43,509 nt of DNA from a virus, in IMG/VR virus record IMGVR_UViG_3300029286_001647; one strand, written 5' to 3'. How positions within the stretch are numbered: position 1 is the first letter of the stretch; each line of letters opens with the position of its first letter. The notes under the pieces are model-generated. The model made no database searches and had not been told where the DNA came from. It saw only the letters and a list, made by a program, of their open reading frames with translations. Positions 14,965 through 17,464 of the stretch are shown here, piece by piece. Made by a program: the position numbers and the translations under genes.

Positions 14965-17464
14965 TTAGCTCTTTTTGTTCAAGAGACCTTTGATAACTTC
15001 ATCGACTCCCAATCCTTTCAGCAGATTTGCGCCAGCGTCAGCACAACTCGTTCCTCCAAGGATTGCGAGAGGAGCAGAAGCTTCCGCAAGCTTGATCGCC
15101 AATTCCTTATCTCCAAGAGAAGTAATAGATGCGACCAGTTGAGGACTGATTGCTGTGAGCTTCGCGGTGTGGGCTTTCGTTTGCTCATTCAGAAGAGCAA
15201 TAGCGAGCGCCTGTCTTTCTTCCTCTGCCGCAATTTCCTGAGAATCACGGATTTGCTGCGCTTCCGCAACGATTTGCACTTGCTCTTTCTTAACCTTTTC
15301 GCTAGCCAGGGCGATGTTAGATCTCATCTCTGCCTTTTTGCCATCAGTCTCAATAGACGCAATCTCAACTTCCTGGTTCTTCGCAGTGACCACCTTCTCT
15401 GAATTGATCTTTGCGATAGAAGTAGCCAGACGGATGGAGACCAATTCCTGATCAATAACATTCGTTCTCTTGGCAGTTTCAAGCTCTCTCTCTTTGTCCG
15501 CGATAGTCAAAGCATTCTTCACAGATGCCTGTTGCTGATCGACAAGAAGTTTCTTGATCGTGCTGTCCCCGATAGATACTTCAAGGACTTCGACTTCATT
15601 CACAATCATCCCGTTGTCATTAAAGACCATTCCAACACGTTTGCTCCCGTCAGCAGGCTTCACACCAAGAACGGTATCGCGAATCAAATCAATTGCATTG
15701 GCGTTGAATTCTTCAATACCAACCCTCTTAACCGCATTACGGATCTTGCTACGGAAATGATCGCACATCAGTTTGACGTAGTTGCTTACGCTGAACCACT
15801 TGTCTTTCTGTTCCTTATCGAAATCGACACGATAAGAAACCTTGACAGAAACAGAAACCATATCCGATGTTTCCGCGGAAATGATGTCGCTTACCTTGTT
15901 GCTGAAGATGCCAAGATAAACGGTATTCAGAAGCTTGTCAGTTGTCTTTGGCTTGCCGGTAGACAAAGTAAGCATCTCAAGAGTTTCGTCATAATCGAGA
16001 AGAACCGTGCAAGGTCCGACTTCGACACGACGACCACCAGTCTTGCTAATGACTTGTACGGCATATCCAGTCCATACATTAATGGCAACAGCGCCATCAT
16101 ATTTTGTATCAAGCTGGATTGTTTGTGGAGGCGTATATGCGGCGCTGCGAGTCATAGAATCGCCAAAAGTAGGCTCTTCTGCGCTCTCATAGGTATCCAT
16201 CACACAAGCAGCCGCAGCAGGAGATGCAAGACCAGACGCAAATCCTCGTCCCATATTTTTTGCAAATTGGCGTTGAGTGACAAAGTTGCTTGCGCCATTA
16301 ACGATTTGGCGAAGCGAAGCATTGTATGTCAACACTTCCTCATTGCCAGGATAGAACAAATCGCATTGCCTTACGTCCAAAACTCTGCGCACCAAAACCT
16401 CATTACGAGGATCGGCAAGAAACATCATCGGACCTTTGACAGTCTTAATGTTTCCAGTTTTCTTGTCCAGAACATATCGGGCTTCACCAGCGGGGATAGC
16501 AGTAGCAAAATGGATTTGCTGACTACCATAATTGATCAAAGAATGTTCAGGGCGAGGAATATAAATGTTCGTATCCTTGCCGGTGATGAACATCTCTTCG
16601 CCGCGCTCATGCTTAACGCCATTATCTTCATATGGGGCAATAACCTTGATATAGAGCCCCATATTGGAATCAAGCTCATAAGCCTTGAACTTCCTAGAAC
16701 CATTTTCCTCAAGGAAGTTTTCATCTGGTTCTGGGAAAACAACGGCAGGACCATCAATGTATCTCTTGTCTCCATTCTCTTTCAATAGAATGCAATACTC
16801 AAGAGATTCGAGGGTAACTGCATCATTGATGTAGTTATTGCTAGACTTGGCAGCAGGACAAACTTCGATTCCAGTCGGGGGGATATAGAAAGAAACTTCT
16901 GTGCCCTTGATAATCAAAAGCTGACCGATTGTAAGATCAGGCACTTTTGATGTAGTATTCTTCTCTCCTTCTCCCTCTCCTTCTTTGGGAACTGTAGTGA
17001 CTACAGCGCTCTTCCAGTTCTTTACAGCTTCTGCGTTATTGTAAACGCGAGCTACAAGATACTGATTGCTACGAAGACGGTGACCAGCGACAACATTCGC
17101 AATCTGACCAGGCCATAGGCAAATCTGGATTGGACCTGGAATGTTAATCTTCTTTCCCATACTAAGATCGACAAGAGCATTTGCCTTGCCAGGAAGAGGA
17201 CTCTTGAACTTATCATCTGCTGCGGGATTTTCAAGAACCATGTAAGATCCCTCATTGGCGAGGGGGAAAGACCTGAATTGCTTGATCGCGAGAGCAAGTC
17301 ACAAACTTGCCGCTTACGAGTTTGACAGGCTTATCAGTATCACTGAGTGAAACCTTCATAGGTCCAACATAAGCCTGAATGTTGCCTTTAGTGCAATCAA
17401 GAATTGTTGCGTACTCGAAGGGGTTAAGAACTAGATCACGTTCCTGTTGACGATCTTCTGCCAT
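14965..17464 (-). CDS. major vault protein homolog, frameshifted near 17263-17267
   Basis: ORFs 17252-17464 and 14965-17241 together resemble eukaryotic MVP (recalled sequence): vault repeats, SPFH-like shoulder and cap-helix coiled coil; a 1-nt change in a G5/C5 run joins the frames. Confidence 0.8.

Follow-up and report, generated by a model that had tools for sequence, protein, structure and literature searches.

How should two neighbouring open reading frames (ORFs) be read when each resembles a different part of a single protein? The question arises in the IMG/VR virus record IMGVR_UViG_3300029286_001647, a stretch of 43,509 nucleotides (here called the window, always at its full length), on whose minus strand a short frame (ORF-N, 70 codons) is followed by a long one (ORF-C, 758 codons) in another register. 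By their sequences, ORF-N and ORF-C are two parts of a single major vault protein (MVP) homologue, and the gene has probably been disrupted or truncated by a genuine, recent and lineage-specific insertion of a single C in a short C run.

The minus strand across the break reads CAA GCA ATT CAG GTC TTT CCC CCT CGC CAA TGA GGG ATC TTA C ATG GTT CTT GAA AAT CCC. ORF-N consists of native residues 1-67 followed by Pro-Arg-Gln and a stop, and ORF-C lies in the +1 frame relative to it. When one C is deleted from the run of five (C5), three-frame translation gives a continuous ORF of 832 amino acids that reads ...QAIQVFPLANEGSYMVLENPAADD..., the repaired junction being VFP followed by LANEGSYMVLENP. 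An initial annotation of this DNA, made from the letters and the ORF list, had held that the MVP N-terminus (17252-17464, ending QAIQVFPPRQ) and the remainder are in different frames, and that a one-nucleotide change fuses them into VFP-LANEGSY; three-frame translation, Pfam and alignment to rat MVP bear out the former claim, and the latter agrees with the 832-residue ORF, whose junction equals the family consensus. The homopolymer that it placed at about 17263-17267 does exist as a C5 run (G5 on the plus strand), one base away, at 17262-17266. The +1 frame opens only at 17298 and the 0 frame ends at 17254, which confines the shift to about 45 nucleotides (nt); homology narrows it to the interval between F66-P67 and A69, which is the C run. 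The junction has near-invariant residues on either side (F66 precedes; A69, E71, G72 and Y74 follow): when 16 and 63 sequences are aligned, F66, A69, E71 and G72 are conserved in at least 90% of members and Y74 is invariant, and the repaired protein conforms to the family consensus ...AIQxF-x-x-A-x-E-G-x-Y.... Because the codons for LANEGSY lie outside both ORFs, neither product contains these residues except after a +1 shift. Reassignment of the stop codon was considered and rejected, as the 0 frame has more, and different, stops within a few codons and the homology follows the +1 frame; the stops used in the window are an ordinary mix (TAA 33, TGA 20, TAG 8). A scan for promoters and terminators over positions 14800-17800 gave nothing over shuffle expectation.

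The repaired protein has the features of the MVP family, namely a shoulder, N-terminal repeats, a long C-terminal cap helix and collinearity with eukaryotic MVP, and departs from the family in that the continuous polypeptide is interrupted by the +1 frameshift at 17262-17266. The match to the MVP_shoulder profile scores 97.3 bits against a cut-off of 25 and spans profile positions 3-118 of 118. Rat MVP runs in register with the repaired protein (query 462-759 to rat 461-772); the shoulder is aligned and the rat repeats give weak repeat matches. An AlphaFold2 model built from the 63-sequence alignment, with a mean predicted local distance difference test (pLDDT) score of 69.7 and values of 80-86 at residues 10-80, is beta-rich over residues 10-360, where pLDDT is mostly 60-86. 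The best whole-chain matches of Foldseek are the rabbit, human and rat vault shells (E values of 1e-32 to 1e-26); it also matched the crystal structures of murine R1-R7, at about 1e-11. A search of 5.8 billion proteins with the repaired protein returned 6455 homologues, the best 119 of which, the 758-residue ORF aside, are single ORFs of 809-894 amino acids with 97-100% query coverage and 46-53% identity, mostly from bacterial metagenome-assembled genomes (MAGs). Within the 63-sequence alignment no member diverges more than the repaired protein, whichever region is considered. In the model, the break falls among the strands at residues 63-65, 68-69 and 74-78 of the N-terminal repeats, where pLDDT is 80-86. 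As sequence alignments to the rat vault reach only from about repeat 6 onward, the placement of the break relative to R1 and R2 rests on these AlphaFold strands and on the limits of the rat repeats, which we take to be 1-55 for R1 and 56-110 for R2; on these limits the break would lie close to the waist of the particle, where the second repeat begins or slightly within it.

Is the shift a property of the family or of this phage? The comparison with related genomes that the initial annotation proposed gives a uniform answer, with no orthologue split into two ORFs. When 80 MVP loci from IMG/VR (L005-L084) were compared by tblastn with the repaired protein, none of the 79 loci spanning the site switched frame at the junction and all read through in one frame; the remaining locus, L078, was excluded as it is cut by a contig end. 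The contig of L078 (IMGVR_UViG_3300047160_029729, 1-2363) starts 5 bases before the codon of residue 74, near the start of ORF-C, and this is most likely a coincidental contig end. The shift is likewise absent in the three huge phages in GenBank, each of which matches in a single piece, and in the other 119 listed protein homologues; a two-gene organisation was found in none of about 200 inspected homologues, and the frame switch is limited to this phage's own contigs. In the closest relative with retrievable DNA (P0003/L085, 51% identity) the corresponding sequence is ATT CGG GTA TTC CCG ACC GCC AAT GAG GGT, translated as I-R-V-F-P-T-A-N-E-G, with the same residue count as the C4 reconstruction. 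Since this relative has no extra residue, the simplest history is the change of TTT CCC CTC GCC into TTT CCC C CTC GCC, that is, a C4 run plus one C. Across the sequences compared, then, the shift is lineage-specific and not conserved.

The remainder of the gene bears on the age of the insertion. No second lesion, either stop or indel, was found in the 832 codons, and random substitutions in the coding sequence create a stop in 2.7-3.7% of cases; neutral drift since the insertion is bounded at about 80-110 substitutions, or 3-4% (a 95% bound with indels ignored), which is small against the 47% amino-acid distance to the nearest relative. Near-invariant positions are kept in 26 of 32 cases in the N-terminal fragment and in 135 of 155, 68 of 80 and 19 of 31 in the later regions, and the N-terminal fragment is no more decayed than the remainder. 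With no second lesion and so low a bound, the lesion is recent, or else selection continues to act on the frame.

Homopolymers are well known for indel errors on some sequencing platforms, and the break would be an artefact of sequencing or assembly if the genome were truly C4 and the gene intact. C5 is however identical in the window and in four more contigs (JGI 3300029268, ENA ERZ27250635, of 43,082 bp, ENA ERZ27250602 and Logan SRR8536341), which come from three assembly pipelines (JGI, MEGAHIT-style ENA contigs and Logan) and at least three libraries, cross the site unbroken and give the same gene calls of 70 and 758 amino acids. JGI, ENA and Logan all have records of the exact 70- and 758-residue products, and no exact product of a C4 allele (832 amino acids) or a C7 allele (833 amino acids) is present among about 15 billion recorded proteins. 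A pattern that allowed other tract lengths retrieved nothing from JGI metagenome_contigs or IMG/VR, but neither collection contains this phage, which makes that result uninformative. Moreover, a longer C6 run, 380 nt deeper in the same gene, encodes part of a conserved motif and is read in frame, thus serving as an internal control against homopolymer artefacts, and a G6 run at 2802-2807 of the same contig is in frame as well. (A scan of the window for frame breaks at homopolymers did not discriminate, as every operon-style junction beside an A-rich ribosome-binding site scores.) The occurrence of C5 in several assemblies and the in-frame C6 make a random or platform error very unlikely, and even though all five contigs could derive from related libraries of one project, the chance that the gene is intact, as the sequencing or assembly indel offered by the initial annotation would imply, seems very slight. 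Slighter still is the chance of phase variation or transcriptional slippage, in which the length of the C tract would flip in DNA or RNA and turn MVP on or off. The shift does fall within a homopolymer, in a gene with no other damage, but the tract is just 5 nt long, and contingency loci and sites of transcriptional slippage normally have about 7-9 or more identical bases. All five assemblies carry C5, with no tract-length polymorphism and a tract of 5 against the typical length of at least 7, and no ON allele is on record (such sites are covered by a review, PMC5009743).

More of the evidence touches the possibility that the shift is made good during translation. The full-length product requires a +1 shift, and UUU_CCC_C permits exactly this with perfect re-pairing, tRNA-Phe on UUC and tRNA-Pro on CCC. 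If +1 ribosomal frameshifting were utilised, whether as a programmed event or as leaky compensation for a 'saviour indel', a one-base slip of peptidyl-tRNA-Phe on UUU, of tRNA-Pro on CCC or of both would yield some full-length MVP, the rest being the 70-residue peptide, so that MVP dosage would be lowered and not switched off. Sequences of the type CC[C/U]-[C/U] have an inherent tendency to shift +1, at rates reaching about 1% in E. coli where average sites stay under 0.003% (PMC4519876); Listeria phages shift +1 on CCC, and herpes simplex virus (HSV) thymidine kinase provides a precedent of a homopolymer indel rescued by low-level frameshifting (PMC5009743). The 0-frame codon after UUU is CCC, the rarest Pro codon in the window (3.8 per 1000), so that the A site could be slow with UUU in the P site; the 0 frame ends just three codons on, and the gene has no other lesion. 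Against this stand the absence of the shift from every relative and the immediate context of the site, where neither a stop nor a demonstrably rare codon follows CCC directly: in the 0 frame it is followed by CCU, which at 16.7 per 1000 is used more than any other Pro codon in the window, and the UGA stop is three codons downstream and non-adjacent. Upstream, the only Shine-Dalgarno (SD)-like element is a weak AGG, 5 nt from CCC, whereas the SD-to-slip spacing in prfB is 3 nt. Folding of the downstream 112 nt does not surpass that of shuffled sequences (z = 0.27), an Rfam scan detected no element, and a homopolymer location does not discriminate because such tracts are also the commonest sites of ordinary indels. 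Besides the slippery run nothing marks the site as programmed, and the run is an equal hotspot for replication-slippage indels; of the programmed slippage that the initial annotation had listed, the slippery sequence stands, while conservation, stimulator and structure do not. Utilised frameshifting is thus unlikely. One specific form of it, which we regard as slightly less probable again, is that the extra C would act as a dosage device: +1 slippage on the tandem slippery motif, where P- and A-site tRNAs both re-pair, would give the 70-residue peptide of the first repeat for the most part and full-length MVP in a smaller, regulated share. Otherwise the extra C would make a 'saviour' knock-down allele that evades host recognition of an abundant shell protein and keeps a trickle of function. 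Were either true, no recoding event in a vault gene would have been described before it, and it would add a +1 site that works without a stimulator in an accessory gene of a phage. Much the same low probability as for utilised frameshifting, or marginally lower, attaches to a functional split gene, in which the 70-residue peptide and the 758-residue remainder would both be made and would reassemble non-covalently, or the truncated MVP would work alone, for example in half-vault-like caps. Both pieces keep family-conserved residues and have a translation signal, ORF-N a canonical AGGAG 9 nt before its ATG and ORF-C a GAGG 8 nt upstream of an ATG that lies 10 nt past the ORF-N stop, on a par with many genes here, and the split allele is the consensus in all samples. 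Conversely, seven residues, including the near-invariant A69, E71, G72 and Y74, would be in neither piece, the cut is among beta-strands of a confidently modelled repeat and not in a linker, and none of the roughly 200 homologues has the two-gene form. The start of ORF-C is likely to be fortuitous, since its GAGG is a by-product of the conserved Glu-Gly codons and, where it has Met, relatives have Ile, Leu, Val or Met.

The recent pseudogenising mutation that the initial annotation also considered is hence the best-supported of its options, the lesion being lineage-specific, with no second lesion and no recoding signals. In this lineage an ancestral C4 would have become C5 by a single-base insertion, most simply through replication slippage on the homopolymer, in an accessory, bacterial-type MVP gene of a large phage. 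Ribosomes loaded at the strong ORF-N ribosome-binding site would end at the UGA (17254-17252) and free a 70-residue peptide corresponding to the first N-terminal beta-repeat; some may re-initiate at the AUG at 17241, 10 nt on, and produce an MVP without residues 1-74, and full-length MVP would come only from the few ribosomes in which a spontaneous +1 slip occurs on UUU_CCC_C. The result would be a nascent pseudogene or truncated allele that has spread through the sampled phage population, and, to judge from the modelled position of the break and the loss of LANEGSY from both products, normal MVP function is probably lost or impaired. Several points weigh against a simple loss. Phe and Pro tRNAs can re-pair in +1 on UUU_CCC_C, and some full-length protein may yet be produced and might suffice; the ribosome-binding site of ORF-C appears usable, and an N-truncated MVP with some activity is possible; and the allele is the consensus in several samples and is therefore at least tolerated. 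In addition, the five contigs represent one clone, 100% identical outside a tandem repeat (27 bp x 21.6), so that they replicate the sequencing and not the evolution: they give no measure of selection on the split allele, no ratio of non-synonymous to synonymous substitution and no estimate of age.

Table 1. Features of the interrupted MVP gene (positions in the window; coding strand given)
Feature	Position	Strand	Remarks
ORF-N	17464-17252	-	70 amino acids; N-terminal piece of MVP homologue; ends ...DQAIQVFPPRQ and stop
Interval with 0 and +1 frames both open	17255-17298	-	three-frame translation; sole place for the frame change
Candidate shift site TTT CCC CC (UUU_CCC_C + C)	17262-17269	-	one C over the family reading frame
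C5 run (G5 on + strand)	17262-17266	-	homopolymer at the break
Codons of L68-Y74 (LANEGSY)	17242-17261	-	+1 frame; in neither ORF
ORF-N stop TGA	17254-17252	-	3 codons past the C run; overlaps the GAGG(G) SD-like motif
SD-like GAGG(G)	17253-17249	-	made by conserved Glu-Gly codons
ORF-C	17241-14965	-	758 amino acids = residues 75-832 of the repaired protein; starts MVLENPAADD...
C6 run	16877-16882	-	ATC CCC CCG = conserved I-P-P of FYIPPTG; read in frame
Vault_3 (MVP repeat)	15931-16065	-	residues 467-511; Pfam 1.2e-11
MVP shoulder (Pfam PF11978)	15565-15900	-	residues 522-633; E = 8.1e-28
Long cap helix, predicted	15169-15564	-	residues 634-765; AlphaFold2 model

The setting of the gene is that of a large phage, of which the window is best read as a fragment. 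All ORFs in the window are on the minus strand, tightly packed and preceded by SD-type ribosome-binding sites, at about 40% GC, and the window contains no tRNA genes. The recognisable genes are accessory: RtcB, NIF phosphatase, CYTH, NUDIX, RNase T, YAcAr, Trypsin_2 protease and ADP-ribosylglycohydrolase, as well as a kinase/PP2C/VWA trio, a ligand-gated channel and a tail-fibre-like repeat protein. RtcB is closest to those of the jumbo phages phiRSL1 and phiCbK. MVP homologues were found on 117 contigs listed in IMG/VR, many of them of 100-500 kb, and in three GenBank records of uncultured huge phages, of 462 and 735 kb (LR756500, LR756501, LR756503); the 117 contigs are far above the two gut phage MVPs of a preprint that makes no mention of frameshifts (bioRxiv 10.1101/2023.11.10.566534).

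Directly downstream of the MVP gene lies a Trypsin_2 serine protease with an N-terminal hydrophobic segment (14034-14897, minus strand), which overlaps the next gene, a YAcAr/SLOG-like one (13664-14071), and immediately upstream are two small Cys-rich ORFs (17562-17741 and 17746-17931, minus strand) of 59 and 61 amino acids, zinc-ribbon-like and with several CxxC pairs, for which no relatives turned up beside MVP at the other viral loci. The idea that MVP belongs to a conserved gene module was dropped, because in the 80 viral loci it is not joined by the Trypsin_2 protease, YAcAr or RNase_T. A set of genes for RNA repair and nucleotide signalling (ADP-ribosylglycohydrolase, CYTH, RNase T-like exonuclease, NIF phosphatase, RtcB ligase and NUDIX) lies at 1408-2325, 11871-13101 and 19408-21977 (minus strand); according to a preprint, ADP-ribose is bound at the vault shoulder (bioRxiv 10.64898/2026.05.01.722283). 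The ORF at 25713-27023 (minus strand), with tail-fibre-like PHROG matches, contains at 25965-26548 a 27-bp (9-amino-acid) tandem repeat of 21.6 copies with 89% match, and this repeat is the sole place where one of the ENA contigs (L001) differs from the window. This difference is either one of repeat register or copy number, or an assembly collapse; the 5-7 apparent single-nucleotide polymorphisms of this contig were considered as evolutionary divergence and rejected, since all are inside the repeat and reflect its register. At 34644-35783 (minus strand) an ORF of 379 amino acids matches SBP_bac_3 (4.6e-30), Lig_chan-Glu_bd (5e-10) and Ion_trans_2 (4.8e-14), and its domains identify it as a putative GluR0-like ligand-gated channel, a solute-binding part joined to a K+-channel pore with two transmembrane segments, which is unusual cargo for a phage. 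Three consecutive ORFs at 39732-43112 (minus strand) have weak matches to a Ser/Thr protein kinase (1.7e-07, just under the Pfam cut-off), PP2C (3.1e-09) and VWA (1.5e-05), and may form a phage-borne signalling module. The GC content at 36000-40000 is 0.47-0.50, against about 0.40 elsewhere in the window, and this block may have been acquired more recently.

It is commonplace for an accessory gene to be broken by a one-base insertion in a homopolymer, and bacterial and phage MVP homologues have already been described (bioRxiv 10.1101/872010; 10.1101/2023.11.10.566534); neither preprint demonstrates that the intact ones assemble into vault-like shells. For annotation, the ORFs of 70 and 758 amino acids belong together as one disrupted MVP gene and not as two proteins. 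It would appear from this finding that, in its natural habitat, the phage can do without MVP, at least for a while, a point of relevance to what phage-borne vault proteins do. If a full-length product is made, in which the tryptic peptide across the repaired (trans-frame) junction would be DQAIQVFPLANEGSYMVLENPAADDK, the locus would offer a clear-cut example from nature for testing +1 slippage on UUU_CCC_C in the absence of a stimulator.

Among known systems, the Listeria phages PSA, A118 and A500 (PMC5009743) share with this locus a phage gene, the +1 direction and a rare CCC on which tRNA-Pro can re-pair. The Listeria sites, CCC_UGA in tsh and ACA_CCC_(UCC) with a pseudoknot in PSA cps, have a stop or a pseudoknot immediately 3' of CCC, are kept among related phages and give two useful products (PMC5009743), whereas here the stop is three codons off, no structure was detected and no relative has the shift. 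The G-run mutants of HSV thymidine kinase (PMC5009743) are alike in being one-nucleotide indels in a G/C homopolymer of a viral accessory gene, where rare slippage on the same run could restore a trickle of full-length protein; in HSV the run is of 7-8, against 5 here, a drug is the selective agent and residual activity has been demonstrated. Non-programmed +1 slippage at CC[C/U]-[C/U], with which this site has CCC-C in the 0 frame in common, is restrained by m1G37 and EF-P, and the +1 shift of tRNA-Pro on CCC-C carries no energetic penalty (PMC4519876; PMC7577736). Its frequencies (about 1% or less in the wild type, highest at codon 2) are at the level of errors, and the site here is at codon 67. 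Among the other bacterial and phage MVPs (bioRxiv 10.1101/872010; 10.1101/2023.11.10.566534; LR756500, LR756501, LR756503), the interrupted gene was found in this copy only, which has no conserved gene neighbourhood in common with the other viral loci and is 46-53% identical to the single-ORF homologues of bacterial MAGs and 38-47% to those of viral contigs; with them it shares a length of about 830 amino acids and an architecture of N-terminal beta-repeats, a Vault_3 repeat, a shoulder and a long cap helix.

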